Source: Anthoceros angustus (Eukaryota > Plantae > Anthocerotophyta). Taken from it: a stretch of DNA of 64,000 nucleotides. Within the stretch, counting starts at the first letter, position 1; each line of letters starts with the position of its first letter. The stretch is from assembly GCA_010909165.1 (NCBI GenBank), contig VJWM01000250.1, positions 124,001-188,000 of the forward strand, in the 5' to 3' direction. The position numbers were made by a program, and so were the translations under genes. The notes under the pieces are model-generated. The model worked only from the letters and a program-made list of their open reading frames with translations, was not told the DNA's origin and made no database searches. Positions 28,476 through 64,000 of the stretch are shown one piece after another.

Positions 28476-30614
28476 TGTGGAGTGATTTTCTAAACTAAGT
28501 GGTCACAAAGAGGCCACATTTACCCTCTTTATCATTGTAGACTTGAGATTCGTACCCAAGGGAGTGATTTCGTGTCAAGACAACCAAAACATAGCCAATC
28601 CAACCAAACACAGACACACCAAACATCTAGCGCATGCACTGTGCTACTATCCTAATAACACTCAGACTGCTATCTTAGCCACGCTGACCTTTACCTACCT
28701 TAGCAACGTAATCTTGCTGCTATCTTAGCAACCACCCTCTATTTTTAGCAGTGGGTCCACCTTGGGATCGGCTATTAATAGAAGGGTGGGACCCACTTGG
28801 GATCCAAGTGGATAAGGTTGACACCCTCTTATCTATCCACAAAGTTAGATCCACCAATCGAGTTAGCCACGTGTCACCTTTTCCACACACTATTTATGGA
28901 CAACCTAAGCAGCCGGCCCTAACCCTAATCTCTAAACCTAAACCTAGGACAACTCACGATAAAGGGTTGCACACACAACCAAAGACTTTCTCTTGCACTT
29001 CTTGTCTCTCCTCCAGCCTTTCAGCTCACCTTCCAAGCTCCATACAGACCTCTCCAGGCTCTCACAGCCCCTTGAGGTGCCTCGCATTCCTCCCCACACT
29101 CTCCAAGTCTCCCCAAAGAACTCTCTTCAACTCTCCTTGTTCTCACACCTCACGCCCCATTCAATCTCCACTTTCTGACCACGACCTCTCCCCCTTAAGG
29201 TTCTCATCCAGGCCCTTACAGCACTTCACCAACTCTCAAAATACTTGTTCAGCTCCAATCATTCCGTCTCATCCACTCACGGATCTTCAACCTCCACTCA
29301 CGCCTCTTCTTCAAGAACACAAACATCACTTACAGACTTCTCCAGTCCTTCTTACTCCTCTCAAACAGCCAATCAGCAACTCTCCATGTCCAGATTCTCC
29401 ACTTCTCTCAGTTCACTTTTCCTCTCATTTTCCAAACACACAAGCCCACGGGCCTCCAACTCACTCACTTTCCTCTCCTCCACACACAGGCTCCCCGCCT
29501 TGTCTTCCTCACACACGGGCTCCCGCCTCTCTTCTCCCAAAACACCGACCTCCAACACACGAAAACTCAAAACACAAGGTGAGTACTAGACTAGGAAGGG
29601 AATGAGGAAGAGTCAGCCTCCCCTTCACAACCCCTTCCTCTTGACCTTGGAAACTCCCTCCAAGGAGACCTCAAGGCTCCCTCCCTTGCTTTCCACCACC
29701 CTTGGATCCGGCCAGATCTAGGCAACTTGGTGGTCTTCGGCTTCTCTGTGACAAAGAAAGTGTCTAGACTTACAAAGACCTTGGATCTGCCCCCAAACCC
29801 CGTGCTCTCCCCAAACACCAAGACCTTAAACCAACATTGCTTACATTTCATCAAGAGGGCTGCCTCTTATACCCAAGATCAGCCCACAAAAGTAGCTGCT
29901 TGCCAAAAATACCAATCGGCCTTAGCCTAGTCCTAGAGGCCTATCTCTTAATTACATCCACTAAGAGAGAAGATAAGATTTCTGATCTATAAGCACATGG
30001 GCTACTATTTCGGTCACTTACCCCTATTATCTCCCTAGGCCTCCTAGGCCTCCTAGCCCCATGCTCCTCTTGCTCTCCTCCCTCTTGGCTGGTTGGGCAA
30101 ACTCTCCCACAAAATCTCCACCTCCTCAGCTGGACTCCTCTCTTGTGCTCGCAGATAGCCTCCTCCTCCTCGGTGAGCTCTTGAATCCTGGATGGGTCAA
30201 AGTCTCCTCCATAAGAGTCCAACCCATAGGTAGGATCCGGTCTGCCAAGGCATGGATCAAGTACCTCCATGTTCCCTGTACTTCCCGTTCGTATTTCCTG
30301 TGATTTCGCCCAAATAGGTTTCCGAATTTATCGGAAAATAACTCCGACTTGGTTGCTACCATAGCAACAGCTCCGGTCGGTTGTCATAGCAACAGTCCTT
30401 AGCAACGGCCCTAGCAACGCGTAGCAACCCCGAGCAGCCAACCCTCCGAGGTTCGCCCGTGATCGTGACTAGACTCTCTTCCTCCTACTAGGCTCTAGTA
30501 GACTTTTCTTATTTCCTAACCTACTTCACATTCCAACTCCACACGATTCTCACAACTTAAACACAAAACAAAAACACTCCTTTCGGGGGGTCGAGTACCC
30601 ATGTGGTCACCACA
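28476..30614 (-). repeat. 3' LTR of element C (2.1 kb)
   Basis: Shares the U5 motif (28547-28566) and the GTATAAGAG motif (29864-29872) with the other families. Confidence 0.85.
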
Positions 30615-37350: not shown

Positions 37351-37613
37351 GGTCACAGTCTGGAAGACCACATGTGCACTAACCCCGCCTCCCAAGTGTC
37401 GATGAACGATTTTTTTGTTTTGATGTGTTAGAATAGCAAAAGTGCTTTGAGAATCGCCCCGAGTCGTCTTTTATACGGAATGGTCCTTGGCCCTTGGAGA
37501 TAATAATAATTTTCGACCTTAGGTTTGACCCCGCAGGGTGGTAGAAATAGAGTCCTTGGGTATTGGGAATTTTAGAATAAAAGGTGTCTATATATGCTAG
37601 GGATGCTCACAAT

Positions 37614-40006
37614 ATGCCACGCTTGAGTAGTCAAGTGGGTGGTGGCTAGTTCCACCACGGTGGCCGAGAAACGGACGCATGCACTGTGGGGAATTTACAA
37701 CCCTAGTGGCGGAGCGGGACTACCACCGGAGCGCAATCGAGAAGGGCACACCCAAAGACTGCGAGGTCGCGACTTTCCGTGAGGGGCCGGAGCGGAGCCA
37801 AGAAGAGGGCGCGCACAACCACGCCAGCCAACCGCCTCATTGCAGGAGGAAGGGCGCGACGATCGACAGGCGGCGCGGAGGAGAGAAATCGGCCGCAAGT
37901 TCGCGAGGAGCGTGGAAGGAGCGCGAGGGCGGCTCGATTTTTTTCCGACTAACTGCAGGGTAGTCGAGGTTTTGTTTTTGGGAAACAACGAGAAGGAGAT
38001 GGCGCCCGAGCCGCGTCAAATCTCACTCACGCAGGGCCCAACATGGACCATCGGAAAGTGAGAGCCGGCAGCCCGTGCGTGAGCCGGGTCAAGTTCATGG
38101 AGAAGAAATGGTGCTACGATACCGCATTGGTGCAAGAGTGCGCCAATTAAGGACCAAGTCGCAAGAGGGTGACGCGAGGAAAAGGCCGCAACTGGATTTG
38201 GCCCTCTTTCGAGCAAAGGGGCGAGAAGCATCAAGATGGGAGCTTGGTGATTGACCGAAAGAAGACCTTGAGAGCCGCAGCGCCGCCATGAAGCCTCGGG
38301 AAGTGAGAGTGAACAATGGGTGACTCGCCAACTCGTGTCTGCAAATGTGGATTGGCCAAATGGATTTTGTGTTTCCTACGTAACCTAAGTCGGATCATAT
38401 GGCGGATCACTTCTTGGTTTTTCTTCACGAGGTGGTCAAGGGTACACAAATTGATTGGGGAAGGATGATTTTCGAAAGAGCCTGTGAGGAGAAGGCGAAT
38501 TTACTCTCTCTTCCCTCGGCCCTCCTTGATTTCGCCTTTTCCGATTCATGTATTTGCCCGGGTGGTTGAAGTTGGTGTCCGCCCGCATGGTTGGAAGCGT
38601 GGAACTCAAGGTAGAAGAGGAGGAATTTAAGGAGGATTCGCAAGGATTCCAAGCTTGGGAATGCTCCCTCGAAGGTTCTAAGAGGGTGGGAAGTTTCCAA
38701 GGGTAAGAAGCGAAGGGAACGGCCGAACGGGGTCGAAAAGGGGAGGACAGCATAGAGGAGGAACCCAGCCACACCTGTGGTCACCAGTCAAGACTACAGC
38801 AGAACGCTGGTAAAGGAGGAAAATAAAAGGAAATGGCAAGTTGCTCCCTCCTGTGCAGGATGAACGCCGCTAGGGAGAATGAAGCGGGGGAAGAGGCAAG
38901 GGCACCAACCCCTAGGAGAGGAGGGGTTAACTTCACAGCCGAGACCGCAACGGAGCTCCGGACATTTTTGGCGACATTTCACCGAACCGTCTGGCCGAGG
39001 TGGGGATAGAGACACCGTCGCGAGAATTGTTGTGGAGGCGGATGGGCAAAGGGACAGCCCAATTTGGGGATTTGGTGGTTTGACTGCCATGGCGACGCAG
39101 CGGATCTCCTCGATCAAGCAGCCCATGGCTCTCACAGTGTGCAAGGCCAACAGGAGAAGTTGCTCAAGGAGAAGTTGGAAAGCCCGAAGGCGAGAGCAAG
39201 GCGGCCGAGGAGCGCAGACGGAGTGCGGGCGCCTTATGCAAGGCATGCAGGGACATGTCCACTCAGCAGAGGCTTAGTAAATCAGTCAAGGGGCGATGCT
39301 ACAATTGAAGAGCTTCAAGATGAGGTCTCATGAGTCCAGTGAGAAGCGTGGCGTGGAGAAATTCAAGAAGTCATGAGAGGTACAAGCGGAAAGAGACGGT
39401 TAGGGCCGAGTCAAGAGAGAGGTGGCCAAACCAAGAAAGGCCGAGCGACCACCGCAGGAGCCAAGCAACCACCGGGAAGAACCACCACGGTGGCTAAACC
39501 ACCACGTGGAACGGGAACCGAGGTGGGGAAGTCACCGAGGAGTGTCGCAGATGGAGGATGATCCGGAGAATCAACAGCCTGTGGATTGTCCACGGAGGAG
39601 AGGGTAAGGACCTCATCGGGGCGATTGTGCCCGGATGAGGATGCTCATGTCCCCGGCCGCTCGCATGGTGAGCGTGCTCACTCTAAACGCTATGTGGTTG
39701 TTGGGGAGGGGCGTAAACCACCGGGTCAGACATCTTGACCGCCACAGCGCTACTGGTTCCTTCGAGAGCGGCGCCTATCCTGTGGTGCCGGAAGAGATGA
39801 GCGAGGCGCAGCGAGCATGGAGGGAGGAGCACGTATGGTTGTCCAAATGAGGAGAGAGGGACAATGGACATAGAGTCACAGGAAGGCGCGAGGGAAACTC
39901 AAAAGGAGAGTGAGGTGGAGGTTGTGGGGAAAATGATCAGGCGAGGCCAAGAGCGAGAGGGGTCCCCATGGGCCGAGGGGCGAGGCAAAGAATGAGGCGG
40001 CACTGA
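37614..40006 (+). pseudogene. LTR-embedded accessory ORF (A2 5' LTR)
   Basis: KGPTWTIGK, FLHEVVKGTQIDWGRMIFERACEEK, QEKLLKEKLE coiled coil, PDEDAHV block. Confidence 0.72.
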
Positions 40007-40989
40007 TTTTAGGGAGTCGCGATAGCCTAGGACCGGGTTTTTCGTAGGATAGGGAGTTCCATCACCGAGAGTCATGTTGCTTAGATTGGGCGCCGTGGTA
40101 GAGCTACAATTTTAGACACTAAGAGAAGTGAGCGTGTTGGACCATGTATAAGAGACCCTTTGGGTGTCTCTCAAAGACGATTTCGTGTGTGAACTTCCGT
40201 GTATCGAACCGGGGTTGATTGAGACGCCGTCAAGATCAAACGCGGGCGCACCGCCTTCGTCACAAGAGAGGCCGGAAGATCTCGGATGGTCGAGAGCGAG
40301 TGGCCAAGCTCCACGCCGGGGGTAGAGCGCCGAGAAGGGGCGGGTTGGAATCGAAGGCGAATCGAAGCAGTGAAGGGTTTCTCTTCCTCCCTCCTTCCAA
40401 CGCTGCCCACTGTGTGTGTTCATTCCATGAGGAGGGGAGGGTGGCCTGTGGTGAGGTCTGTGGCCCAAGGGAGAGGGGTCTGGCGGTGAGAGGTTCAAGA
40501 AGGGGAAAGGCCTGAGGAGAGTGGTTGAGCGGAATAGAGAGGGGGAAAATGAGAGAGTGAGGGGGAAGGAGCGTAGGATCGCAGAAATTCGGAAGTGAGC
40601 GTAGGAGGGAGTGAGTATGTGCGTGTGTGTCCCAAGCCCTGGTCCGAGTGGAGTCAGACACGCGGCGCCGCGGGGCCTGCTGGTTGAGTCAACACGCGGT
40701 GGCGAACGCCACCACGCGAGTCACCAGGGTGAGTCTCCAGTGGGTTTGGAGAGTGGTGGGTAGGGTAAACGCGTAGGTCTAGAATCCATAGAGATTAGCA
40801 CATCTTGACACAACACCATTCCCTTGGGATCGAATCCTAGGACTATAACGACATAGAGGGTAAATGTGGCCTCTTTGCCTTTGGATGCAAAACCCATTCC
40901 ACATTTTGGCGCTGGGAATGAAACTCAAGGTTATAGGGGACTAACCATAGCTTAGGTGTCTAGTTTTGGAGTGTATCTAGTTAGGTAGA

Positions 40990-46530: not shown

Positions 46531-46800
46531 TGGCGAGGACGCCAACAAATGAGAAGGGAGTATGTGGAAGACCACATGTGCACTAACCCCGCTCCCAAGT
46601 GTGAACGATTTTTTTGTTTTGTGTTAGAATAGCAAAGTGCTTTGAGAATCGTCGAGTCGTCTTTTATACGGAATGGTCCTTGGAGATTAATAATAATTTT
46701 TCGACCTTAGGTTTGACCCCAGAGGGGGTAGAAATAGAGTCCTTGGGTATTGGGAATTTTAGAATAAAAGGTGTCTATATATGCTAGGGATGCTCACAAT

Positions 46801-48967
46801 ATGCCAGAGTAGTCAAGTGTGGTGGCTAGTTCCACCACGGTGGCCGAGAAACGGACGCATGCACTGTGGGAATTTACAACCCTAGTGGCGGAGCGGGACT
46901 ACCATGGAGCGCAATCGAGAAGGGAAGGGCACACCCAAAGACCGCGAGGTCGCGACTTTCCGTGAGGGGCTGAGCGGAGCGCAGAAGAGGGGCGCATACA
47001 CCACGCCAGCCAAATGGCTCACTGCGGAAGAGGAAGGGCGCCGGAGGAGGCGTGAAGGAGCGCGCGAGGGCGGCTCGATTTTTTTTCTCACCGTAATCGC
47101 AGGGTAGTCGAGGTTTTGTTTTGGGAAGACAACGAGAAGGAGATGGCGCCCGAGCCGCGCCAAATCTCACTCACGCAGGGGCCCAACATGGACCATCGGA
47201 AAGTGAGAGAGCACGTGTGAGCCGGGCCTCAAGTTCATGGAGAAGAAATGGTGCACCCGCATTGGTGCAAGAGTGCGCCCGCAATTAAGGACCAAGTCGC
47301 AAGAGGGTGACGCGAGGAAAAGGCCGCAGACTGGATTTGGCCTCTTCGAAAGCAGTGTAAGAAGCATAAGATGGGAGCTTGGTGATTGACCCCAGAAGAA
47401 GACCTTGAAACGGCCGCGCCATGAAGCCTGGGAAGTGAGAGTGAACAATGGTCGGGTGACTCGCCAACTCGTGGTTCGTGGTGGGGATTGGCCAAATGGA
47501 TTTTGTGTTTCCTGCGTAACCGAAGCGGATCATATGGCGGATCACTTGGTTTTTCTTCACGAGGTGGTCAAGGGTACACAAATTGATTGGGGAAGGATGA
47601 TTTTCGAAAGAGCCTGTGAGGAGAAGGCGAATTTACTCTCCTTCCCTCGGCCCTCCTTGATTTCACCTTTTCTCGATTCATGTATTTGCGCATTCGTGTG
47701 TTTAACGAGTTGAAGTCGCGGTCCCCGCATGGTTGGAAGCCGTGGAACTCAAGGTAGAAGAGGAGGAATTTAAGGAGGATTCTGCAAGATTCCGTGAAGT
47801 TGGGAATGCGCCCGAAGATCTAAGGAGGGTGGGAAGTTCATGGGCAAGAACGGAAAGGGCAGCACCCTCGAGAGGGGAAGAGAAGGGAGACACCAACAGG
47901 GAGGTTAACCCACACCAACCGTACTGGTGGGGATAGGATCAGACACAGAATTGGAGGCGGATGGGCAAAGGGACAAATTTGGGATTTGGTGGTTTGACTT
48001 CGCCATGGCATGACGCAGATCTCCTCGATCAAGCCCATGGCTCACCGCCGAGTGTGCAAGGCCAACAGGAGAAGTTGCTCAAGGAGAAGTTGGAAAGCCC
48101 GGAAGGCGAGAGCAAGGCGCCGAGGAGCGCAGACGGAGTGCGGCCTTATGCAAGGCACAGAGCGTTAAGGCACATGTCCACCCAGAAGCTTTAGTAAATC
48201 AGTCAAGGGGCGATGCTACAATTGAAGAGCTGATGAGGTCTCGCGAGTCCAGGAGTGGAAGCGATGGCGCCTTGAGAAATTTCGGGGAGAGATACAAGCG
48301 GAAAGAGACGAAGCTAGCCGTAGTCAAGAGAGAGGTGGCCAAACCAAGAAAGGCCGAGCAATGCCACCGCAGAGCCAAGCAACCACCGGGGAAGTAACCA
48401 CCACGGTGGCTAAACCAGCCACCGCCGGAACGGGAACCGAGGTGGGGAAGTCACCGGCTGGAGTGTCGCAGATGGAGGGATGATCCCGAGAATCAAGCAG
48501 CCGCCTGGATTGTCCACGGAGGAGAGGGTAAGGACCTCAGATCGAAGGGCGACAGTTACGGCGTCCGGATGAGGATGCTCATGTCCTGCCGCCGCATGGT
48601 GAGCGTGCTCACTCTAAACGTGTATGTGGTTGTTGGGACAGAGGGGCGTAAACCACCGGTCAGACATCTTGACCGCCATGGCGTGCCACTGGTTCCTTCG
48701 ATAGGAGCGGCGCCTATCCTCCGCAAGTGGTGCCGGAAGAGATGAGCGAGGCGCAGCGAGCATGGAGGGAGGAGACATGGTATGGTTGTCCGAGGAGGAG
48801 CGGACAATGGACATAGAGGTCACAAAGGCGCAACGTCCGCGGAAGGCGCGAGGGTCAGCAAAGGAGAGTGAGGTGGAGGTTGTGGGGAAAATCGCTGATC
48901 AGGCGAGGTCAAGAGCGAGAGGGGTCCCCATGGGCCGAGGCAAGAATCGCGGAGGCGGCAGCGCTGA
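46801..48967 (+). pseudogene. LTR-embedded accessory ORF (A2 3' LTR)
   Basis: ORF 47405-47713: HEAWEVRVNNG...ADHMADHLVFLHEVVKGTQIDWGRMIFERACEEKANLLSFPRPSLISPFL. Confidence 0.75.
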
Positions 48968-49988
48968 TTTTAGGGGAGTCGCGATAGCCTAGGACCGGGT
49001 TTTTTCGCGAGGGATAGGGAGTTCCATCACCAGAGTCATTGTTGCTTAGATTGGTAAGGGCGCCGTGGTAGGAGCTACAATTTTAGACACTAAAGAGAAG
49101 TGAGTCGTTGGACCACGGATGTATAAGAGACCCTTTGGGTGTCTCTCAAGACGATTTCGTGTGTGAACTTCCGTGCATCGAACCGCAGGGGTTGATTGGA
49201 GACGCCTGTCAAGATCAAACGGGTTCGCGCACCGCCTTCGTCACAAGAAGACCGGAAGATCTCGGATGGTCGAGAGCGGAGTGGCCAAGCTCCACGTGTA
49301 ACGGTGAGGGGCGCCCAACATGCCGAGAAGAGGTAGGGTTGCGGAAAGTCGGGGTGAGATGAAGGTGAATCGCCCAAGCATCGACCGGGTTTCTCCTCCT
49401 TCCAACAAGCCGCCACTGTGTTTCATTCCATGAGAGGGGTCTGTGGCCCTGTGGTGAGGTCTGTGGGGGAAAAGGGAGAGAGGTCATGTGTGAGAGGTTC
49501 TCAAGAAGAGGGTGAGAGCGTGGGAAGGAGTGGTGTGAGGAAACGCGAGTAGAAAGAGAGGGGGAAAGCGAGGAGGAGACGTGAGGGGAGGGAGGAGGAG
49601 AGTGAGGAAGTCGAGCAGGAGGAATTAGAGTAGATGTGAGTCTAGCGTGTGTGTGTAAGCCATAGACCCTGTCCGGAAGCCGGTCGAGTAGACTCCGCGA
49701 AGGCGGGGTGTGGGGGGAGTCAACCACGTGGCGAACGTGCCAGCCACAAGGTGGCCGAGTCTACCAGTGGTGCGAGAGGTGGTAGGGTAAGGGCCAGGTA
49801 GGTCTAGAATCCAGATTAGCACACCTTGACACAACACCATTCCCTTGGGATCGAATCCTAGGACTATAACGACATAGAGGGTAAATGTGGCCTTTGCGCC
49901 TTTTGATGCAAAAACCCATTCCATGTTCTAAAACCGGCTGAGCTAATACCGACGGTTTGCAATCGCAACAACAAGTGGTAACGGATGT

Positions 49989-51469: not shown

Positions 51470-51472
51470 TTT

Positions 51473-51492
51473 TGGCGCTGCCGGAATGAAAC
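51473..51492 (+). promoter_or_regulatory. PBS, tRNA-Asp-like
   Basis: TGGCGCTGCCGGAATGAAAC. Related sites at 23244 and 40907 resemble the complement of the plant tRNA-Asp 3' end (TGGCGCCGTTGCCGGGGATCGAAC) with deletions. Confidence 0.6.
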
Positions 51493-51559
51493 TGCTGTCA
51501 AGGTTATAGGAAAAGACTAACCATAGCTTAGGTGTCTAGTTTGGAGTGTATCTAGTTGG

Positions 51560-54500
51560 TAGATGGATGCCACGAGTTGAGTGAGGATTGAGTCAAGTCG
51601 GACGGAAGCCTCAAGCGCCAAGCACTGGAAAGGTTGAAAAGGGTTGCGAACCGGGAGTTGAGGAGGACCCAACCGAAGACGCCGCTGGAGGAGAAGAAGG
51701 GAAGGAATCAACCAGATCGGGGTCCGATCTTGTTGGAGCAAGATCCCCAACCTCACTTGGACGAGGTACCACGGCCAAGGAACCTCCACCAATTTTTCCA
51801 TCGACCTCTTCTAGTGTGCAGATCGGAGATCAATCATTAAAACCGTGGACCGAATCCAACCACGCCACGCCCACGATAGTCATCCACCACTGCGTGATGG
51901 TCACCACCAAGCAACCTACCCGCTGTATGGAGAGGGGGTATGAGGACCTGATGAATTTGTTGAGCGCTTTGAGCGACATTTGCAAAACCAGAAGGGAGAT
52001 GCAGCCAGATTCACTGCTCTATGGAGTTCTTCGGGGTCCAGAAAGTGGTATAGGCGCGAATACTCAAGTCACCACACCTCCCCACCTTTGAAGAGTTAAA
52101 ACCGCCTGTGAGAGGTTTAGGGGCTTGACGTGGAGGGATACGTGTTGTCCAAACTTGAAAAGTCAGAGAGGAAGGAAGGAAACCTTGCAAGCGATGTTGA
52201 GAGGTTTCCTGTACCACGCGATCAAGTGGCCCTCATTCGAGTGCAGTGCACACGGTGGTTCGCTAAAGGCCCGGGTTCTAAGATGGGGAGACACGAAGGG
52301 CGGAGAAGAATTTGGGCAAGGCTATCAAGGCGGCGCTTAAACTATGAGGAATCCAACCCGCAGGGAGGAGGAAAAGAAGGAGTGAGGAAGAAGCCTGTGA
52401 AAAAGAGAAGGGATTCCTCATCCTCCTCGGAAGAAAGTTCATCAGTGAAGAGAGCTCCTGAAGATTCCACAGAAAGTTCCTGAGGAGAAACGAGTGATGC
52501 CGGGAAGAGCGGATGAGGAGCGCGCCAAATGGAAAAGAAAAAATGAAGGGTCGCACGGACAACAAAGAGTCAAGGGCAAACAACAAGAAGCGATGTACGA
52601 AAAGGATGCGAGAAAGCAAGGAGGGAGGCCGAGGTGGCAGCAAGAAAGTGGAACAACAGGAAACAAGATGGAGGAGATGATGGCAAAATTCGAGAAATTC
52701 CATCTTAACGCCAGAAAGGAACACGAGAGAAGGAGAGTCGTCACGAATCCACGAGCTAACCTCTTCGCTCAACGCGGTGGACAGTGTGGTCACTCCAAGG
52801 CTAATCGCCTGACAACAAGAGTGCATCGGATATGAGGAGGAAGAGGAAGATACCCGTGGAGGATACATACCAAATTCGTGAAGTACAAACCGTGTACCAA
52901 GACTATGTATCCCTCCAACTTACGAAATTCCGCATAGGCCGTAATCACCGGCGGTAATAATCCAATGGCACCTGCTACAACTATCGCAACCTTGACACTA
53001 TGACATTGCCCTTATCCAACTCGCAAGGCAATGGAGATTTCGATAAACTGCGTCAAGATTGCAAGTGCAGGGCATTTGGCGAAGTGTACCGCCAAAACCC
53101 CAAACGGGGTTCAGCCGGCCCGAGCCAAGGTTCCGTGGCCCGCCATGCATGTAGAAGACGCTGATGGCTATATGGGAGGACGCCAAGATTAAGACCCTAA
53201 GGAGCTTAGAGGGTTTAGATGCCACGATAGTGATTATTATGGGGAGGCATCGCCATGGTCGCTGTAACGGGAGCTCAAAGCTAAGGAAGAGGCGTGGGGA
53301 AGAAGAAGAAGGAAGGAGGTGATACGACTACGTGGTCGGATGAGGGGAGCGTCTCGCCGCCAAGCGAGGGAAATGTCAAAATTTGCGTAACCAAGCTCAG
53401 AGGTGGAACGGACCTGCGCATCCGTACTGACGAACCAACCAATGGGTGAAGGTACTTGTGAGATACAGAGTGTTCCAGTGGGCGAGGGTGGAAATTCAAA
53501 TGAAAAGGAATCGCGAATGGACATAATTGAAGACTTTACAAGCTCCGCAGAAGGCCGAAAGGTGGAAAATGGGTTAGGGTTTCCACCGGACGTGCGGGGG
53601 GAGGTTATGGATATGATCCAGGAGGAGCTGGGCAAGAAGGCCACGGTAGTGGAGTCGGAGATGCCGGTTTCCAATGCCGCCCCACCCGAGTCCGCCACCC
53701 CACCCGAGAAGCCACCGCACTGAAGCCAAACGGGGTCTACAACCAACGAAACTCGGGGGAGAGGCTTCCTTTAACTTAGCTGAGGCCATCATGGATCAGC
53801 ATTTTATGATCACATTCGACAACTCCTTCGAGACAACCCACTGTGATAGGCAAGCAGATCGAGGGCATTGAAGGAAGCCCAAGAAAAAGGCGATGCCTTC
53901 CAAACCAGTCCAAGGCCACTTGTGTCAATCTAGTATCCATGGTTGACCAAGGACCAACTCGAGTAGAGATCGGTGGGATGCTCATAAAAGGGTACCTCGA
54001 TACGGGTCGTGTGTGAATATCATGACGAGGAAACGCCGTAAAATTGGGGTTGGAAATCGAGCATACAGCAAGGTTTTGCGGTTGGCGATATGTCCGTAAT
54101 GGTGCCGAGGGGAGAACGACAAAGTGTTAAAATCATTGGAACCATCCCTATCTAATGGATTATGTAGTCATCCAAGCACAAGTCGGGTATAGTGTTTTAA
54201 TTGGTCGAACTTGGATGTATGGATCTCATAAACAAGAAGAAAGGAAGTCGGATTCAAACCTCGGAATGGGATCCTAAGACCAAGGAAGGTAGGATTTGCC
54301 TAACTCGAGTAAGGACATGTACGCCGGTGAGACCCCAACGAAACGGAAGGATACACCTCCGCTAAGACACGCGGGGAAAACAAGAAGACAAATTTTCGCA
54401 CACATCTCATGGTCTCGAACAGATTATCGCAGATATTCCGCACGCGATCAACTGTACGCATGGGTAACCATGGATCAGACCGGATTTCAAGAGAAGGAGG

Positions 54501-57500
54501 GCGTGAACAACCGGAGGAGGATGCAGAGTGCTTCACCCCTAAGGATCCGCGAGAGAGTGGGGCATGCGAGAAGAGGAACCGAGGGAGCCAAGAGGGTTTG
54601 AATCCGCACTGGAGCGTGAATGGGTACAGTGATGAGGTTAAGGATGTTGATGCTCTGTGAAAGTACTCAAATTCTCAACAATGGATGAAGTGTTGAAGAG
54701 GTATAAACAACCGCTGCACAATTCATTGATGTCGCCTTCTAGGTGACTAACCGATATGAAGGGTATACCCAAGGAGTGGGGGAGCATAGGATTGACTGAA
54801 CCCGGAGCAATCCCAAAAGGGATTCCGCAGATGTTAAATCCAAGTACTCATTGAAGGTAAAGGATCGCTTGAGTCAGATCTCAAGGCGGATGTAATCTAT
54901 CCTATAGTCAATACCGAATGGGTGGCTCCATTGTGGTGGTCCCAAGAGACCAGAAAGATGGTTTGCCAAGATCGGTTGAATAAGGTCACCAAGAAGGATC
55001 ATTTCCATTGCCCTTCATCGATAATATCCTAGATCCGTCGCAGTGGATGGCGTATTCATTCTTAGATGGGTATTCATTATAACCAAATTTTGATCTCCGG
55101 AAAGTGATCACCGCTTACAACGGACTGGGGACATATGCCTACGCGCATTTGGACCGAGCGCTCGGGTCTTTCATGCGAACCATTGTCAAGATCTTCAAGA
55201 CTTCTAGGGACTTTATGGAAGTTTTCGACGACTTTCGGAGCCGAAGGACCATCCATGCACCTTCAAAGTGTCTCGAACGGCGTCGAGCCACGCAATTATG
55301 TTTGCATCCAAAAGTGCTATTTGGCATGTCGAAGGAACCGCTGGGACATCAATTTCGAGTATAGAGTTGATCCCTAAGGTCAAGGTCATAGCCACTCTAG
55401 CACCTTCAACGCTAAAGGAACTGTGGGTTCGGGATGGTATTACAGACGCATTCCAAATTTTGCAAAGCCCCACTAACGAGCTTGTTGAGGAAGGAATGAA
55501 GCAACCGCTATGTAATTCATCGATGTTTTCGCCTCGAGACATATGGGATTCCCAAAGAATGGGGCAGCATAGATTGACTCGAACCAGAGCAATCCCAAGA
55601 AGGATTCCACAAGACAAGTTAAACCCAAGTACTCCTCAAGGTAAAGGATCGCTTGAGATGTACCTCAAGGCGTGATCTATCCTATAGTCAATACCGAATG
55701 GGTGGCTCCAATAGTGGTAGTACCTAAGAGGCGCCAGCAAAATCCGAGTTTGTCGATCGAGAAGGTTGAATAAAGTCACCAAGAAGGATCACTTTCCGCT
55801 ACCCTTCATCGATAATATCCTCGATCCGTCGCAGTGTAATGGCGATTCATTCCTAGACGGTATAATCACCGCACCTTAGGGAGAGCGATTGGCCTCGACC
55901 GCTTTTACAACCGATCGGGGACATATGCTTACAAGCGCAGCGACGGGTTGACGGAGCACCGGTCCTTCATGCGAGCCATCAAAATTTCAAGGACTTCCTC
56001 CGCGACTTTATGGAAGTTTTCCGACGACTCCAGATTCGGTCAAGGACCATCCGCACCTCCGGCCTCGAGCCGCCGAGCCACGCAATTATGCTCGCATCCG
56101 CAAAAGTGCTACTGCATGTCGAAGGAATTCGCTAGCATCAATTTCAAGCCGAGGTATAGAAGTAGATCCGGACAAGGTAAAGGTCATCGCCACCCTTAGA
56201 GCACCAATAACGCTAAAGGAACTCCGCGGTTCCCGGGAATGGTCGGTATTATAGACGCTTGCTCCAAATTTCGCCAAGCGGGCTGCCCCACTAACGAGCT
56301 TGTTAAGGAAGGATCGAGGGAATGGACGAACGAACGGAGAACGCATTCCGTGGATCACGAGACGACACTACAGCTACCACGCTTAAGAGGCCTGATCGAG
56401 TAAGAAATTCCATGTTTTCTGATGTTCAAGATTTGCCATCGGAACAATCCTTAGCCGAGATGAGAAGAAGAAGGATTTTCCCCATCTACTATGCCGCACA
56501 ACCAACGGAGCGAAAGTATACCACCACGGAGCGAATCGGGAATGATTTATTCTCGTGAAAATTCGACACTACCTCTCATATGAGTTTGTGTTCCATGTTG
56601 ATCACTTTTTGAAACACCTTGTGAATAAACTTGACCTTCTCGGGATGATAGCTCCGGATCCGCCCAGTGAGTTTACCTTCATGGTGGAGACGAGAGAAGG
56701 CAGAAACGTCACTTCATATCCCGCTTAAAACAGGAACGTGGAACCAAAACCAGAAGATGATTTTCCGATGAGACATTGTTGAGGATGAGAGCGAAGACCC
56801 AATTCGAAGGAAAGGGGAGGGAGATGGCCTCGAATGAGAAGGGAGGAGAGGTTCACAAGACCAACATATCGAGATCTTATGATTATCCGGCACGGGCCAA
56901 ATCCTCACCATCTTCCAAGGCACAAACAAAGCTCGCTCACTATTCAAGACCACTTCGGCACAACACGAACTTATACGCATGGGTCCCGGATGGCGGGGAG
57001 CGTTATGCGCACAAAGTGTGAAAGTAATCGAGCTCATTACACGAAGAGGAGGCTGGAGGCCATTATGCCGCGCATGTCACTTGCAGAAAAATTCGAGGCC
57101 GGCTATTGGTGGCCTACCATGTACAAGGACGTCCAAGAGTTCAGAAAGCGACGCTGTCGGCTGGGAAGCCAACCGCCACAACACAATGGCCACTTGTCCC
57201 CATACTTGCCGTAGCGCCATTTGAGAAATGGGGATCGATTTTCGGGCCCATCCACCAAAACAAGACCCGCCAAAACCAAGACATTCCGTGGCCACAGACA
57301 TCAGACGAATGGTGGAGGCGCAGCGCCGCCACGGGATTCGCAACGTGGCTGTGTTCTTGTTGAGCAAATCATCACTAGATATGGCTGCCCATTGAGCTGG
57401 TCACGATAGAGAGGTACGTCAATCGTGTAATCTCTAATATGACCAATCATTTCAACGCCATCATGTGAAGACTACTCCCTACAACCCAAAGGCCAATGGG

Positions 57501-58010
57501 TTGACAAAAGGCAAAGGCTGTTGTGCAAGATCCCGACCAAAACCTCAGCTAGTTGCGCGATATGATCGATATGAAATCGCATTCAAGATCTGCATCGACT
57601 GGAAAAGTGACGCACCCAGCAGACTCGTATACCTAACATATGGACATTCGCCAATCATGCCAATAGAGTTCAAGTACCCACCCCGAGAGTGTGAAACCAA
57701 GTCGAATGCCGGAGGAAAGCGCTTGGAGAGGTTGGTCATTGTAAGACACACGAGGATGTAGCAAGCACTAAGTTATGCAGGATGTTCAGCAAAGGAGGAA
57801 AGAATGGCACGATAAGCGACTGAAGCGCCAAGAGTATGTTGTTCCTGGAGACCTGGCTTTATTGTATGATAACCGATACATGCATTTTCCAGGTAAATTA
57901 CATCTCAGGTGGATGGGACCCTACAAAGTCTTGGAGGTTTTCGACAATGGATCTATCCAGCTGCAGCAATTGAGTGGATCGCCCCTGCCAACTAGAGTCA
58001 ACGGCTAGTT
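51560..58010 (+). pseudogene. gag-pol: gag-pol of element A1, with two tandem RT segments
   Basis: gag (ERGYEDL...), DTG..VNIM (~53998), RT starts at ~54850 and again at ~55640, RH, INT (FEKWG, TPYNPKANGL, MPIEFK, KLHLRWMGPYKV). Confidence 0.92.
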
Positions 58011-58040: not shown

Positions 58041-58051
58041 GAGAAGGGGAG
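58041..58051 (+). promoter_or_regulatory. Polypurine tract of A1
   Basis: GAGAAGGGGAG followed by TA and the LTR start; equivalent to the A2 and C PPTs. Confidence 0.88.
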
Positions 58052-58053: not shown

Positions 58054-61000
58054 TGTGAAGACACATGTATCCTAACCCTTCTCTCAAACTGTGGGATGAA
58101 TGATTTTTTGTTTTGGTGTTGTATAGCAATGCTTTGAGAATCCCGTAAGGCCTTTTATAATGGAAAGGTCCTTGGCCCATGGTGATAATAATATTTTCTT
58201 GTCCTTGACCTGTTAGGAAGGTTAGATAGAGTCCTTGGGTTTTGGTAATTTTAGAAATAAGAAGGTGTCTATATATGCTAGGATGCCTACATTTTGCCAC
58301 AGCCATGCACAAGTGGGAGGTGGCTAGTTCCACCACGGTGGCCAGACGGCGCATGCACTGTGGGGAGTTCACAACCCTAGTGGCGAGCGGCCGCCACGGA
58401 GCGCAATCGAAGAAGAACACACCGACATCGCGAGGTCGCGAATTTCCGTGAGCGAGCGCTGGCGAGCGCAAAGAGCCGGGCGACGATGCAATCGCTCGCG
58501 CCAAATCACCGCTACTGCGGCAGTGGCGGGCGCACGCCGATGTGCGAGCGGCGATCGAGGAGGGAAACCACGCGGGCGAGCGAGGAAGAGGCGCAGGCAA
58601 GAGGACGTGAGGAGCGGGGGAGCGAGGGTGGTGCTTTTCCTCTCTCGACCAGCCCGCAGGAGAGCCGGGTTTTTGAAGACAAGGAGAAGGGAGATGGCGC
58701 CGAGCGCGTAAATTACATACAAAGGGCCCAACATGGACCAATCGGAAGGTTAGAGCGGTGATCTTGTGTGAACCGGGCCTAGATTTCATGGAGAAGAAAT
58801 GGTCACGATACCAAAGATTGGTGCAAGAGTGCCCGCCAACCGAGAACCAAAACGCAAGAGGGGCGACGCGAGGAAGAGGCCGCAAAATTGGGATTTGGGG
58901 CTCTTCCGAGCCGCAAGGGGCGAGAAGAATCAAGATGGGAGCTCGTGATTGAACCGCAGAGGAAGAAAACTCGAAAGCCGCAGAGCGGCCATGAAGCCTG
59001 GGAAGTGAGAGTTAACAATGGATGGATCACGCAATGGTCCGCACCGTGGGTTGGCCAAGTGGATTTTGTGTTTCTCGTAATCGAAAGTTAGATCACATGG
59101 CGACTACGGTCTTCCTTCATGAAGTGGTGGGCACGCAGATCGATTGGGGAAGGATGATTTTTGAAAGAGCTTGTGAAGAGAAGGCGACTTGTCCCCTCCT
59201 CGGCCTTCCTTGATTTCACCTTTTGATTCATGTGTTTGAGCATTCGGATGCCTAACGAGTTGGAAGCCGTGGTCCGCCTTCTTCATAGCCGGAAACCGGC
59301 CGAGAACTCAAGGTGGAGGAGGAGAGTATAAGGAGGATCTGTGGAAGGATTCCAGTAGCTTGGGAATGCCTCACCAGAAGATCTGGATGAGGGTGGGAGG
59401 TTTCAAGGGCAAGAGGAAGAGGGTAGCGACGATCGAACTGGGTCGGCCAAAAGGGAAAACAAGAGAGGAGGAACCCACACAACACCTAGGGTCACGAGGT
59501 CAAATCAGCAGGGACGTGAAGGAGGAGAAAGGAACGGCAGTTGTCCCCTTCGTGGGATGAGTCACGCTAGGGAGGTTGAACGGATAAAGGGTAGTTGCAT
59601 CAACCCCAGGAGAGGAAGGGTAATTTTGGCACCGAGCTCAAGGACATTTTTGGCGATCTCATTAACCCCACCAAGTGGAGATAAGTGACCGCAGGCGGAA
59701 TTGTTGTGGAAGGAATGGGCACGGAAGCCCAATTTGGGAATTTCCAGGTCGACCTCGCCATGGCTCGACGCGATCTTCTCGATCAGCAGCCATGGCTCAC
59801 TTGGCCGAGTGTGCAGGCAACAAGAGAAGTTGCTCAAGGAGAAGTTGGAGGGCCTGGAGGGTGAGAACAAGGTGGCAGAGGGGTCGCAGACGGAGTGCGA
59901 GGAGGCATTGTGCAAGGCATGTGAACAACAAGGCCATGACCACCCAACAGGAGGCCCTAGTAAATCAAGTAAAGGAGCGACGCCACGATTGAGGAGCTCC
60001 AATGAGGTCTCATGAGTCCAAGAGTGTGGAGACGATGGCGCCTGAGAAATTCAAGAAACCGGAGAGATATAAGCGAGAGAGATGAAGCTAGGGCCGAGTC
60101 AAGAGAGAGGCAAAACCAAGAAGGGCAGAGCAACCACCGCAGAGTCAAGCAACCACCGTGGGGAAGCAACCACCACGGTGGCTAAACCGCCACCGCCGCT
60201 GGAGGAGGAACCGAGGTGGGGAAGCACCATGAGCGCCGCAGTGGGATACGACTCCTCGGATTCCTAAGGCGCCTTCGGATTGTCCACGGGAGGAGAGGGT
60301 AAGGACCTCAGAGCGTAAGCGACAGTCGCAAGGCCGGATGAGGATGCTCATGTCCTCGGCTTCGCCGCATGGTGAGCGGTGCTCACCTAAATGTGTATGT
60401 GGTTGTTGGGGGAGGGGCGTAAACCATCGTGCACACATCTTGACGCCACGGCGCGCTGGTTCTTTCGAACGGGAGCTGGGGCCTACCCCCCCCAAGTGGT
60501 GATCGAGGAGATGAGCGGCGGAGGCCAGAGCGTGGAGGGAGGAGCACACGGTGTGGCTGTCCAGCGACGAGGAGTGGAACAACAGGCATAGGGCCTATAG
60601 ACGCACGACGCCCACGGAAAGACGCGAAGAAACCGCAGGCAGCGACAGTGAGGTGGAGGTTTTGGGGGAGAATCGCTCGGATCAGAGGCGTGGCAGGAGA
60701 GCGAGAGCGAGGGGAACCCCCATCGGCCGCAGGGCTAGGCAGCAACCGCGGACGCGGCCGCGCTGATTTTAGAGGAGCGCGACATCACAGGCCAGGGGTT
60801 TCTTTTCGGGTTAGGGGATAGGATGTTTTGAGGGTCTGCGGAGCTGTAGTTACCGGAATTGGTAGGAGCGCCCGTGGTAGTGGGCCATATTTTCTAGACA
60901 CTGGAGAGGAGTGAGCTGTGGAGATCCGCAGCTGGATGTATAAGAGACCTTTGTGTCTCTTAATGCATAATTTCCCTGTGTGAGCTTCCGTGTGTTGAAC

Positions 61001-61854
61001 CTACGCGAGGTTGGTTAGAGACGCCTGATCAACATCAACCTGCCGATGCACCGCCTTCTCACAAGAAGACCGGAAGATCCTCGGGTGGTCGAGAGCGGAG
61101 TGGCCAAGCTCCACGTGGGAGTGGTGAGCGTGAGAGGTAATCGCGCATGCCGGGAGGGGGGGGAATTTCCGCGAGGGTCGGGGTGAGATCGCCGAAGGCG
61201 AATCGCCCAAGTACACAAGAGTTTTCGCCCTTCCTTCCCAAACCGCCACCGTAACGTGTTTTATTCCATGAGGTCCAGGTGGGCCCAAGGTGAGGTCCGT
61301 GTGGCCCGTGAGAGAGAGAGGATTTATTTGTGGAGGTCCGGGAGGCGGATGAGTGTGCAGAGGGGATTGCGATGCGCTTGGGGAAAACGGAATGATCGAA
61401 AGAGTGAAGTGAATGGTGAGATCACGGGGAACCAGGGCGGAGTGAGGCCACGGCGCTCGAGGTCGGGGCATAACCCTGAGAAGATCCGATGTATTCCCGG
61501 AAGAGAAGTAAGAGTACATGTAGGTGTGTGCATGACCATAACTCCCCAAGGACTGAGAAGCCGGGTGATGACATAATCTCCCGCGACACGAGAGTGGCGC
61601 TGGTGGGGCCCGCCATGTGGTTGAATCGCCCACTACGGTGGTTGAACCTCCCACTGGTGGCCGAGTCTTCCACGGTGGTGGGCATGGTAGCTGTTACGGG
61701 GGGTGAGGGGTAGTGATTGTGGTAGGACTAGAGTCCATAGTTTTAGAACATCTTGACACAAAACCATTCCCTTGGGATCGAATCCTAGGACTATAACGAC
61801 ATAGAGGGTAAATGTGGCCTCTTTGCGTCTTCGGATGCAAAAACCCATTCCACA
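58054..61854 (+). repeat. A1 3' LTR (3.8 kb, uninterrupted)
   Basis: TGTGAAGACAC...CCATTCCACA, followed by TSD CTCCC. Confidence 0.92.
58305..60766 (+). pseudogene. LTR-embedded accessory ORF (A1 3' LTR; ~820 codons with frameshifts)
   Basis: MHKWEVASSTTVA..., HEAWEVRVNNGW, FLHEVVGTQIDWGRMIFERACEEK, RQQEKLLKEKLEGLEGENK, PDEDAHV, ...RARQQPRTRPR*. Confidence 0.75.
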
Positions 61855-61859
61855 CTCCC

Positions 61860-64000
61860 CCTTATGAAGGTAAATAGGAGTTTTTTTTGTGTTTGGTGCG
61901 AAGAATTAGGCGTTATATGAGAAAAATGAGGCTAAACTAGCCTAGCCAGGGTAAACGGGGAAGGTCCGGGGAAAAGGGCCTCGCTAGGCAACGTCGGAAC
62001 TCCGGAGTAACTCCGGAATGACTCCGAAGGAACTCTGGCGTAGACCTGAGTGAAGTCCAAAGGAAGGAGAGGCCTTAGGGTCAGGCGTAGGGGCGTAATT
62101 TGATAAGAATGACACGCGGTCGCCGAGTGGATGATGTATATGCAAAGGCCGTAACCTTAGAGTTGTCGTTGTACCGTTATAGGCATGTAGTCACAACCCA
62201 AGGACATGCGCCAAGAAGGCGGCGGGCATGAAGTTTATGGTACAAGATGCAGGATGGTGGTAGTTACCGGCAGCGAAGGGACACCTTCCTGTGCACCGAT
62301 TATGCCCGACGCCCCACTGCTGAGAGGAAAGTCATCTTTCCGGGCGACCTCCCGGTAGTTCTCTCAGTCGCTCATGCTTAGACACCCAGCTCTTTGACGC
62401 TTTCTCTTCTGGGGCTCGACCGCAACGCCCTGTGGCCTTTGACCCTTCTTGGCGCGCAAATTCCTCTCGAGCTCAAGGGTACAACGGAGACCATCGACGC
62501 CCGCCCTACCTTAGCAGACGGAGGCGAGCCATATGGGCCCAAGAAGAGCAATGAGGTCTTGGAGCCCCGCGCCAGGAGAAGAACATAGTCACTAGGCGCT
62601 ACCCCGACTTTGGTCACTGGCTTGAAGAGGTCGGACCTGTTGGACCAGCGGGTGAGAGCAATGGCAAAAATTATTGTCCACTGGAACATGCTCACCAAGG
62701 TGGATCGCCTGGGAGATAACCTCCTGGTGTTCCTGCACACCCTCCTGAGGGGCAAAAGGGCGGATCATCTTCGCCCGGATAGCCCAAGAGGCCTGGAAGC
62801 TGCGCAACGAGCAGCCTCCCCCATCAGCGCTGTCCCCTTTCATCCTCCATGTCTGGGGACACCATAACCTCCGGAAGGAGGGAGAGGAGGAACGAGCCCT
62901 CCGTCGAGGGCTGGCCACCCTGTTGGAGGGGGAGAAGGATGGAGGAGAGCAGGACCCGGACAGCCGGCCGATCGCGGGGCCCAAAACGCGGCGCGCACAA
63001 GAGGAGGAAGATTGGGAGGGCATCCCTGATGCTATTCACCTGGAACAGACCTCCTCTCCTCCAAGGGAAATCTGGGAAGAAATTCCCGCTTCCCTCTTGC
63101 TAGTACCAACGACGAGCAAAGCAGCCCATGATCGTAGGATAGGATTGAGCTGTACCAGCAGCACCGCGGGCGGCGAGGACAACTGACCTCCCACTTGAGC
63201 CCCGATGGACCAGGCGGAGGGCGATGAGCAGGCGCTGAAGCTCACCGGTGAGACCGTGTTCTCACCCATGAGCGCGGAGTGGGCGGAGGTGGAAGCGGCC
63301 GTCCGGAGGGCGGAGAGGGATGCTGCCCAAGGCGCGGGAGGGCACTGGCAGCAACCCCATCCGGAGCCGCCTCGCCCACAAGGGAAGTGCCACCCCACCC
63401 TTCACCCCCACTGAACCCCAAGCATCGGAGGGCGGAAAAGAAGTTGGCTGCGAAACGTGCCAAGGAGGTGGAAGGACCCGCACCGGATGGTCAGGACGTA
63501 AGGGTCCTGATCGGGTCCGCAGCATGACTTTAACATGGTCCGCCGCATTCGGCAATCCTTGACGAACTGGGAATGCCCGCCTCCCCTGGGTTTACGGGGA
63601 GCCACGCGCGGCGGTGGAGGAGACCAGTGGGTCCCGGGCCCGGGATGCATGGTGGGGTGGCAAATGGTACCGCTGGAGGACGCAAGAGGTGGAAGCCACC
63701 CGGAGGCGCATGGTGGAGCTCCAGGGCCAGACGGAGGCAGCCCAAGCAGCCAAGTGGAAGGCGGAATCCCTAGCTTGGATTGAAGAGGAGAAGCGCCGGA
63801 CGGCGGAGAGGGAGGCAAGGTCCACCCGGCTGATCGGCCCGGTTTCACCGCGGTCAGCTGAAGCGCGCAGGAGGCCTGTGTGCGCGGAGGCCTCGAGTCA
63901 GCAAAAGGAGGAAGCGAGGGCAGCAGCAGATGTCGTGCGTTAGAACGTGGAGGACGCCCGGGACTTAGTAGAGGCCGCACGAAGGGAGAAGAGCCAAGCT
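61860..64000 (+). repeat. Family-D-like LTR with embedded ORF, running off the window end
   Basis: RAMAKIIVHWNMLTKVDRLGDNLLVFLHTLLRGKRA (62610-62867) and coiled coil 63614-63943. Homologous to the solo LTR at 8791-13272. Confidence 0.8.

Follow-up and report, generated by a model that had tools for sequence, protein, structure and literature searches.

A probable protein-coding gene within the long LTRs of gypsy retrotransposons of Anthoceros angustus

Gypsy elements of the locus and their LTRs

The DNA analysed here (the window) is a stretch of 64,000 nucleotides of Anthoceros angustus (assembly GCA_010909165.1, contig VJWM01000250.1, positions 124,001 to 188,000) that contains several gypsy elements with LTRs of multi-kilobase size (Table 1). 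They are called A1 (17003-61854), A2 (37359-49923), B (the LTR at 19495-23240), solo D (8790-13272, minus strand) and D-like (16975-16997 plus 61860-64000), and a sister element is referred to as C. The repeat at 58054-61854 is a true 3' LTR of A1, 3.80 kb long, and it matches the pieces of the A1 5' LTR at 78-82% identity (blastn). Of the other long LTRs, the two of A2 are 3.54 and 3.36 kb in length, that of B is 3.75 kb, and solo D reaches about 4.48 kb. The initial annotation had described LTRs of 3.4-4.5 kb with PPT, PBS and TSD, and both the sizes and these hallmarks are borne out, most fully in A1. PPTs lie at 46553, 58043 and 30624 (minus strand) and PBS motifs at 23242, 40905 and 51471, so placed that a PPT precedes the 3' copy and a PBS follows the 5' copy in A1 and A2, a PBS follows B and a PPT precedes C. 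In A1 the gap between the end of pol and the PPT is only about 45 nt, the alignment of the integrase C-terminus reaching 58005. The insertion point of A1 is found some 28 nt inside the head of the D-like LTR. The TSD of solo D is clean in only one of the two read copies, the duplicated one near 3920, none was readable at the element ends of A2, and the other end of family B is absent from the window.

Table 1. Features of the A1 3' LTR and of the related LTRs in the window (+ and - give the strand).
Feature	Coordinates	Strand	Remarks
A1 3' LTR, TG..CA	58054..61854	+	PPT before, TSD CTCCC after
PPT of A1	58041..58051	+	pol ends near 58010; no internal 3' ORF
TATA-like box 1 (GTCTATATATG), putative promoter of the LTR gene	58270..58275	+	at +214 to +241 in A1, A2, B
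Conserved globular core, ~180-190 codons, broken by indels	58694..59260	+	presumed start; selection test 58900-59300, cross-family matches
Acidic/basic low-complexity linker with basic patch (possible NLS)	59260..59750	+	from translations
Predicted coiled-coil segment	59750..60150	+	composition; TACC_C E=0.014
Putative C-terminal part of ORF to common stop context	60150..60766	+	collinear A1-B and A1-C peptide blocks
TATA-like box 2 (TATAAGAG), putative genomic-RNA promoter, end of U3	60939..60946	+	A1, A2, C, solo D
Three tandem palindromic CCAC-N-GTGG motifs	61630..61681	+	more at 58330, 59668, 60153, 60170, 61111
TSD CTCCC of A1	61855..61859	.	partner copy 16998-17002
A1 PBS, gag, pol (PR-RT-RH-INT)	51470..58010	+	
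A1 5' LTR, piece 1, with ORF core	17003..19494	+	further pieces 24420-26017, ~50700-51469
A2 5' LTR with ORF	37359..40903	+	core peptide 38384-38566; PBS next
A2 3' LTR with ORF	46563..49923	+	unbroken 107-aa stretch 47390-47710
B LTR with ORF	19495..23240	+	core ~20170-20720; then PBS, gag start
Solo LTR D with ORF	8790..13272	-	inside copia integrase gene; core ~12640-11990; TSD GTAGC
D-like LTR with ORF	61860..64000 (head 16975-16997)	+	core ~62535-62910
3' LTR of sister element C, 2.1 kb	28476..30614	-	TATA2 and C-terminal remnant; no TATA1, no clear core

Conceivably, each long repeat is a short LTR that was duplicated together with a neighbouring unit, or noisy reads have been assembled twice. 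The window is unpolished, with uncollapsed duplications (1-4106 against 5013-8979, and 18534-19494 against 24420-25428) and a fold-back junction at 26005-26036, and the TSD of A2 is unreadable, all of which fits such an artefact. Against it, PPT and PBS adjoin the repeats, the termini of the long repeats are TG..CA inverted repeats, TSDs of 5 bp flank A1 and solo D, and an identical layout recurs in divergent families; we consider this explanation very improbable.

The reading frames are heavily interrupted. Indel events number 5-12 per 100 nt in eight of nine copy pairs and, within elements, are commoner than substitutions; pol is broken to the same degree. Short-read contigs (run X1) compared with positions 54000-64000 disagree at 167 indel places and 50 substitution places, in a comparison with partial cover, mixed copies and possibly the same sample. 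Judging by these patterns, the frameshifts are most likely long-read errors.

A conserved protein core and its surroundings

About 1.0-1.25 kb into the LTR there is a protein core, and this offset is shared by A1, A2, B, D and D-like. As a probe we have used the unbroken core peptide of A2 (47405-47710), with 60 shuffles as the null. On the sense strand it scores z=16.8 on B, z=10.4 on D-like and z=9.7 on solo D, and on the antisense strand of the same three the z values range from -1.1 to 0.6. The DNA of the ORF zone, on the other hand, gave no blastn alignment at E 1e-10 among the five LTR types. Three statements of the initial annotation hold here: the peptides it quoted are found in the sequence, the core is present in each of the families that it named (in both LTRs of A1 and A2, in B, solo D and D-like), and the protein is kept in spite of strong DNA divergence. 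Differences by codon position are 0/0/5 in the FLHEVVKG block between A2 and B and 3/2/9 in a block of 22 codons between D-like and D; such a third-position excess is biased in blocks picked by protein score, and a presumably non-coding block at the LTR end gives 1/0/5.

Selection was assessed along the best frame path from the fixed differences between A1 and A2. Over 35 codons of the core, 9 changes are synonymous and 1 is a replacement (z 4.3, P=0.003), and in the ORF zone the ratio is 21 to 10 (P=0.003), these being the two best P values among 14 selection tests. The pol positive control passes (z 4.2), and no signal was obtained on the antisense strand (P=0.17 and 0.92) or at the head (P=0.15) and tail (P=0.55) of the LTR. 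The signal was likewise absent from the linker, coil and C-terminus (P 0.25-0.59) and when the second 5' LTR piece was used (P=0.59). The purifying selection claimed for the LTR gene has thus been found in its core but not in the three downstream parts, and the dN/dS-type comparison that had been suggested between families gives, for the core and the ORF zone, this synonymous excess of A1 against A2. Two earlier MAFFT-based periodicity tests (ORF P=0.07 and 0.016) were replaced, because mismatches forced at indels made them fail on the pol control (P=0.051 and 0.086).

As far as can be judged from sequence comparison, a homologous protein core is encoded on the sense strand of five long gypsy LTR types and evolves under purifying selection, and a coding gene very probably does reside in these LTRs. 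Not every member of the clade has the trait. The LTR of C (2.1 kb) lacks a clear core, and it also lacks TATA1, yet is collinear with the others at the LTR ends; the A2 core peptide reaches only z=3.8 on it, at +1066 and after TATA2, which is doubtful and far under the scores in the other families. A related gypsy element outside the window (L003) carries its extra ORF internally.

The extent of the ORF is less sharply drawn. Every family has a start context (GATGGC/ATATGG) at about +630-680, which in A1 is position 58694, and a common stop context was located by eye near 60764; together these suggest an ORF of some 690 codons; it would be about 810 codons if translation begins nearer the first TATA box. 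A frame path avoiding the stop triplets common to the copies needs 8 switches over 58690-60520 against 8.7 expected by chance, a comparison from which residual read errors remove the power. Of the frameshifted sense ORF of at least 800 codons originally described, the sense-strand core stands, and the length and continuity find no support in this test. Downstream of the core, the acidic linker of that description is seen in the translations, and the coiled coil agrees with their composition and with a sub-threshold Pfam match to TACC_C (E=0.014) on the A1 5' LTR copy, but these parts are the ones that lack a selection signal. The linker shows no A-B protein signal. The coil segment of A1 and B scores 77 against 42 for shuffles in sense and 68 against 56 in antisense, and collinear A1-B blocks extend through it to near the stop.

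These results bear on a more restricted reading, by which only the core of about 180 codons is maintained, or is even the decaying relic of an internal 3' ORF absorbed by a shift of the PPT, and the acidic and coiled-coil appearance of the remaining translation comes from purine-rich LTR DNA. The null continuity test and the absence of selection beyond the core are in keeping with it, as are the close sense and antisense scores there, the core-less C with its collinear LTR ends, and the 3' ORF of L003, an internal one of domain, linker and coil. The equal offset of the core in LTRs of five types that blastn fails to align over the ORF zone, the A1-B blocks collinear almost to the stop and the selection seen between A1 and A2 all speak against it, and we regard it as decidedly improbable.

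Relatives of the protein and of the elements

No homologue of the core was found among 1.84 billion representatives or in two word-index searches. The Pfam profiles PMD, DUF1985, ATHILA and PF20167 matched none of 16 ORF pieces and none of 12 core pieces (fragments of 32-191 aa containing errors). The resemblance of the DWG motif to PF20167 put forward initially was therefore not recovered, and the profile search proposed for the core matched no Pfam family. What did appear was a weak lead in the ESM Atlas, where the feature neighbours of the core include clusters with PF10536 PMD (19% of members) and PF09331 DUF1985 (20%) at a score of 0.92, with a recognition value for the core of 1917, under the threshold of 2300. 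A 60-aa D-like piece retrieved unrelated families, so that the lead was not replicated. Structure models were of poor quality (pLDDT 51 and 41.5) and gave no match in fold searches, and a PDB sequence search returned noise (best E 0.01). We give membership of the core in the PMD superfamily an even chance.

Several candidate relatives were discarded or were of limited use. Two metagenome loci (L001 and L002) agree in nothing but the seed peptide, within AT-rich DNA, and were set aside as chance matches. The extra domain of L003 was rejected as a homologue (hhalign probability 0.2%, no similarity by BLASTP, frameshift-tolerant z of -0.8 to 1.1 over 7 copies), which leaves its domain-linker-coil ORF as an architectural analogue only. 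L004 and L005 end soon after the integrase. Scans of viral contigs with pol and with the LTR-end pattern, and a genome scan with the RT of C, found nothing.

The elements are Ty3/gypsy non-chromoviruses, with the order PR-RT-RH-INT and no chromodomain after the integrase. RVT_1 and Integrase_H2C2 are matched, and pol relatives are collinear by tblastn, the alignment ending at 58005 beside the PPT; relatives that lack aRH also align collinearly, with no extra insert, to a window pol that is heavily broken. Among named RTs, those of Riccia (61-67%) and Adiantum (53-58%) come closest. In a comparison of 39 rows chosen from 120 matches, plus the window and L003, the window RT falls outside a 100/100 angiosperm clade, which we take to be Athila. 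The 5-bp TSD agrees with Athila, and the internal extra ORF of Athila is absent here. The PBS presumably is of the tRNA-Asp type, and no tRNA gene was found in the window. Phygy and Selgy (REXdb) and the aRH-less Tat Z1/Z2 of liverworts are likewise non-chromoviruses of non-seed plants, in which, as here, gag-pol fills the internal region; they resemble the window elements also in that no additional RNase H is seen, as far as the broken pol of the latter can be compared. Membership in Phygy or Selgy was rejected: these have 4-bp TSDs, a length of 4.4-10 kb and no eORF (PMC6317226), as against 5-bp TSDs and elements of about 12-14 kb in the window.

The extra ORFs of Athila, Tat and Ogre stand in the internal region (PMC7264820; PMC6317226; PMC11963269), in agreement with the initial annotation, and so does ORF0 (PMC3485330). 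We have compared the LTR protein with Athila ORF1 (PF03078), Transposase_32 (PF20167), Ogre PMD (PF10536) and Retand TRP28 (PF04195). Like it, these belong to non-chromoviruses, lie downstream of pol in sense to gag-pol, combine globular with charged or coiled-coil-like regions and have no cellular homologue found; the ORF described here differs in being placed within the two LTRs of an element as well as in a solo LTR, and the Pfam models of those families matched none of its pieces. No LTR-resident ORF of a plant element was found in searches of open-access text, nor in PMC10787394, PMC12885004, PMC13468544 and PMC10508981.

Sense orientation and a position downstream of pol are also features of the aORFs-3S (PMC7264820), and could suggest an env-like membrane protein as in Athila or Bagy2. 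No transmembrane-like segment was identified in 7 copies, the best 19-residue hydropathy window reaching 1.02-1.61 in all seven over all sense frames (broken frames could hide a segment), with the top value of 1.61 within the helical core of one copy. The sequence is, besides, strongly charged, and an env-like protein is hardly credible.

Promoter-like boxes, repeated motifs and a possible function

TATA-like box 1 is degenerate in C and was not seen in solo D or D-like. The counterpart of box 2 in B is a one-base variant, CATAAGAG, at about 22345. We infer a U3 position for the gene because a TATA-like box stands after the ORF in four of the five families, and from the arrangement of the boxes it is likely that the gene lies in U3 with a promoter of its own. 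Box 1 (+215) would then drive the mRNA of the gene and box 2, past the stop, the genomic RNA, and U3 would now house the accessory gene in this gypsy lineage of non-chromoviruses. Reverse transcription places the U3 content of the 3' LTR at both ends of the element, and solo LTRs keep it; a gene in U3 would therefore be present at either end and outlast the formation of a solo LTR. The copying at each cycle that was proposed at the outset accords with these mechanics and with the ORF at both ends of A1 and A2.

The elements also contain repeated short motifs, first spotted by eye. Of CCAC-N-GTGG there are 9 copies in A1 (Markov mean 1.7, maximum 6), 6 in A2 (mean 1.5, maximum 7, hence under the Markov maximum) and 0-1 in each of the remaining six sequences. 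GTTGCTA is found 16 times in C (Markov mean 1.0) and is missing from the other seven sequences. These enrichments are inflated because the motifs were picked from the same sequences, and nothing comparable was seen in B, D or D-like.

The layout of a helical core, a charged linker and a coiled coil, if correctly predicted, would resemble that reported for VANC21 and the Athila domain. By structure, VANC is a homologue of the PMD protein MAIN, and in models coiled coils mediate the oligomerisation of VANC and of Athila-domain proteins (PMC13547354); VANC also binds short family-specific motifs in the non-coding parts of its own transposon (PMC5735166). The LTR protein would share with the VANC of VANDAL (Mu-like) elements a MAIN/PMD-like domain, a coiled coil and repeated family-specific motifs, and might bind CCAC-N-GTGG in A1 and A2 and GTTGCTA in C. 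VANC belongs to eudicot DNA transposons and its function is proven by experiment, whereas fold, DNA binding and demethylation are predictions for the LTR protein. That the U3 gene product is a PMD/VANC-like nuclear DNA-binding protein shielding its own family from host silencing has, to our mind, slightly less than an even chance, and a sequence-specific anti-silencing function is doubtful. The complete scenario is quite unlikely to be right in its entirety: a VANC-like anti-silencing gene would have moved into U3 with its own promoter in a non-seed-plant gypsy lineage, and each LTR, solo LTRs included, would be a cassette of counter-defence gene and target motifs that licenses core-less relatives such as C in trans.

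A real LTR gene might instead serve the replication cycle (RNA export, particle assembly, integration targeting or LTR transactivation), with the motifs being host transcription-factor sites or structural palindromes. All the evidence tested bears on location and coding and not on function, reviews suggest regulatory aORFs like retroviral accessory genes (PMC7264820; PMC11963269), and the strongest motif arrays are in C, whose LTR has no clear core. The sole family-level lead, a weak one, nevertheless points to PMD-type chromatin proteins, and the family-specific motif sets match the VANC pattern (post hoc). We consider a replication-cycle role possible, if rather unlikely.

The role of the extra ORFs of gypsy elements is a long-standing question. 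In annotation and in dating, plant LTRs are taken for neutral sequence without coding content, and the formation of a solo LTR is regarded as inactivation. A selected LTR gene would account for multi-kilobase LTRs, would bias LTR-based dating and would leave solo LTRs capable of protein expression. With the gene, its putative promoter and the candidate target motifs in one 4-kb unit, and C as a natural deletion variant, an anti-silencing role would be directly testable. A precedent is the sag gene of MMTV, a protein gene in the LTR by which the LTR has become unusually long (PMC3026287), as the initial annotation had pointed out. Sag is an unrelated protein and is expressed from spliced mRNAs starting in the 5' LTR or env; in the elements described here the promoter would lie inside the LTR head, and their LTRs exceed that of MMTV about threefold in length.

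LTR hallmarks and sequence quality

The long repeats of the window are LTRs. As the initial annotation had proposed, they carry PPTs (directly before 46563, 58054 and, on the minus strand, 30614) and PBS motifs (directly after 23240, 40903 and 51469), and TSDs could be read for A1 and solo D; the TSD of A2 was unreadable. Element A1, whose 5' LTR is split by nested insertions, has CTCCC at both ends and was inserted about 28 nt inside the head of the D-like LTR. Solo D has split a copia integrase gene, and its TSD, GTAGC, reads cleanly in one of the two read copies. The integrase of A1 ends at 58005, some 45 nt upstream of the LTR, and no internal 3' ORF therefore lies between them.

Elements and LTRs of the window (family names from the initial annotation; coordinates assigned by matching the peptides quoted there)
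Feature	Position	Strand
Element A1	17003-61854	
Element A2	37359-49923	
Family B LTR	19495-23240	
Solo LTR D	8790-13272	minus
D-like LTR	16975-16997 + 61860-64000	
Element C, sister element	28476-35800	minus

In all five families DNA conservation is highest over some 100 nt at the 3' end of the LTR (61750-61830 and its counterparts in A2, B, C and solo D). Differences between A2 and B there are third-position-like (1/0/5 by codon position), and this block beside the PBS is possibly an RNA structure or a short ORF.

The window looks like long-read sequence that has not been polished, with 5-12 indel events per 100 nt in eight of nine copy pairs; the A2 LTR pair has 3.5% substitutions, yet 7.8 indels per 100. 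Over 54000-64000, short-read contigs of run X1, which cover the region in part, mix copies and perhaps come from the same sample, disagree with the window at 167 places by indels and at 50 by substitutions. Since the copies are so rich in indels and the gag and pol frames are broken to the same degree as the LTR ORF, frameshifts say little about decay of the latter, and they limit every test made on the window. Near-duplicate stretches (1-4106 and 5013-8979; 18534-19494 and 24420-25428), differing mostly by indels, probably represent nested copies or overlaps between reads that were left uncollapsed. A perfect 32-bp palindrome (26005-26036) precisely at the end of an A1 LTR piece could be a fold-back read chimera or an insertion footprint. 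Degenerate CATG-rich repeats, both direct and inverted, occupy 26030-27180 and have no relation to the LTRs. The A1 RT region is present twice in tandem (54552-55495 and 55545-56313, 74% blastn identity), either an internal duplication or assembly stutter.

Coding signal in the LTR core

The ORF zones of these families gave no blastn alignment at E 1e-10. The unbroken A2 peptide (47405-47710) nevertheless matched the sense strands of B (score 118, z 16.8), the D-like LTR (80, z 10.4) and solo D (82.5, z 9.7; 60 shuffles each), as against z -1.1 to 0.6 on their antisense strands, so the earlier observation that the protein core is kept where the DNA has diverged holds. The match ends 1.0-1.25 kb into the LTR in all three.

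Selection was assessed on fixed differences between A1 and A2 along the best frame path, with two copies per family as error filter (14 tests altogether; two prior versions were set aside because their own control failed). Differences were mostly synonymous in the core (9 versus 1 replacement, P=0.003, 300 permutations) and across 58300-60520 (21 versus 10, P=0.003), and the pol positive control passed (z 4.2). The antisense strand and the LTR head and tail were not significant, nor was a set with the second 5' LTR piece (P=0.59). Purifying selection, first proposed for the accessory gene, is supported for the core; the linker, coil and C-terminus, taken separately, were not significant. Third-position excess in motif blocks (0/0/5 and 3/2/9 by codon position) is biased because the blocks were chosen by protein score, and a presumed non-coding block also gave 1/0/5. 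Sense scores clearly exceeded antisense in the second half of the core (79/53, 86/60, 153/97) and only slightly outside it (6 shuffles per window). Judged from these sequence patterns, the core is coding, and a real coding gene residing in the LTRs is very probable.

ORF extent, putative promoters and possible function

The families have in common a start context, at +630-680 (58694 in A1), and a stop context near 60764, which together suggest an ORF of about 690 codons; if translation began further upstream, it could reach about 810. The 800 or more codons first proposed are near the upper end, and a continuous frame was not recovered (8 frame switches versus 8.7 by chance, on indel-rich copies). 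A TATA-like box, GTCTATATATG, precedes the ORF in A1, A2 and B and would be the promoter of the LTR gene. Another, TATAAGAG, follows it in A1, A2, C and solo D (variant CATAAGAG in B); we infer that genomic RNA starts here, which would place the ORF in U3. The 2.1 kb LTR of C, a single noisy copy, retains this second box and a C-terminal remnant of the ORF (score 68 versus shuffle 36), while the first box is missing and no core is clearly present; a core match of z=3.8 after the second box is doubtful.

Our literature search, mostly short of full text, found no plant LTR-resident ORF. Among retroviruses, HIV nef is a precedent for a gene in the LTR. So is MMTV sag, which like the window ORF makes the LTR longer, and the analogy drawn initially agrees with the accessible part of PMC3026287. 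Extra ORFs described in plants are internal in the portions available of PMC7264820, PMC11963269, PMC3485330 and PMC6317226, also as first stated, whereas the window ORF lies inside the LTRs.

Homologue searches with the core found none. Like the initial annotation, we take its motif pattern to resemble accessory domains of plant transposons, among them PF20167, a family tied to Athila ORFs; the HMMER-type and fold checks initially suggested gave no relevant Pfam match (0 of 16 and 0 of 12 pieces) and no fold match for a three-helix model of pLDDT 51. The Athila ORFs with PF20167 have predicted nuclear localisation (PMC11728184, in part). No transmembrane segment was seen in seven LTR ORF copies. 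The sole lead to the protein's identity comes from ESM Atlas neighbours of the core (0.92-0.93), some of them clusters in which members carry PMD (19%) or DUF1985 (20%); the recognition value stayed under its threshold, and the lead did not recur with a short D-like piece.

PMDs occur widely in gypsy elements, and for MULEs it has been speculated that a PMD carried by a transposon serves in anti-silencing (PMC5418596). VANC shares structural features with MAIN, a PMD protein, and models have it oligomerise through a coiled coil (PMC13547354). Its binding sites are short motifs specific to a family, and it acts in trans to remove methylation from its own family (PMC5735166; all three sources in excerpt). 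Comparable candidate motifs, chosen by eye, are repeated here in A1 and A2 (CCAC-N-GTGG palindromes, 9 and 6 copies, 0-1 in six other sequences; the A2 count is inside the Markov range) and in C (GTTGCTA, 16 copies, none in seven others), with nothing comparable in B and D. They sit in the LTR head, LTR tail and intergenic positions, those of C clustering at the LTR head, the LTR tail and two internal spacers, yet the C LTR has no clear core. Our leading overall reading, held tentatively, is that a gene inside U3, driven by its own promoter, would encode a VANC-like anti-silencing protein; the specific anti-silencing function, argued by analogy, is rather doubtful.

Lineage and relatives

Among named RTs, the closest come from Riccia (61-67%) and Adiantum (53-58%). 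In a tree of 39 rows (36 matches picked from 120, two window rows and the metagenome locus L003), the window rows lie outside the angiosperm clade (100/100), where they join Riccia and unnamed sequences in an unresolved group. The host is likely a non-seed plant. Phygy and Selgy were excluded, since the values tabulated for them in PMC6317226 do not match the 5-bp TSD and the element size.

L003 holds a related, complete, plant-type gypsy element (5732-19492). Its LTRs measure 1.65 kb, and its internal ORF, which has a domain-linker-coil layout, is fused to pol. Its 2444-codon pol frame is lengthened by about 1000 residues comprising an unidentified domain, linker and coils; the domain has no measurable similarity to the window core. 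This element shows that relatives keep extra ORFs internal and is no proof of ancestry for the LTR ORF. It adjoins bacterial ABC-transporter genes on a Chloroflexia MAG contig that is likely chimeric or contaminant. Integrase fragments of plant-type gypsy elements were also met in a Stigonema MAG (L004, L005) and likely reflect host contamination.
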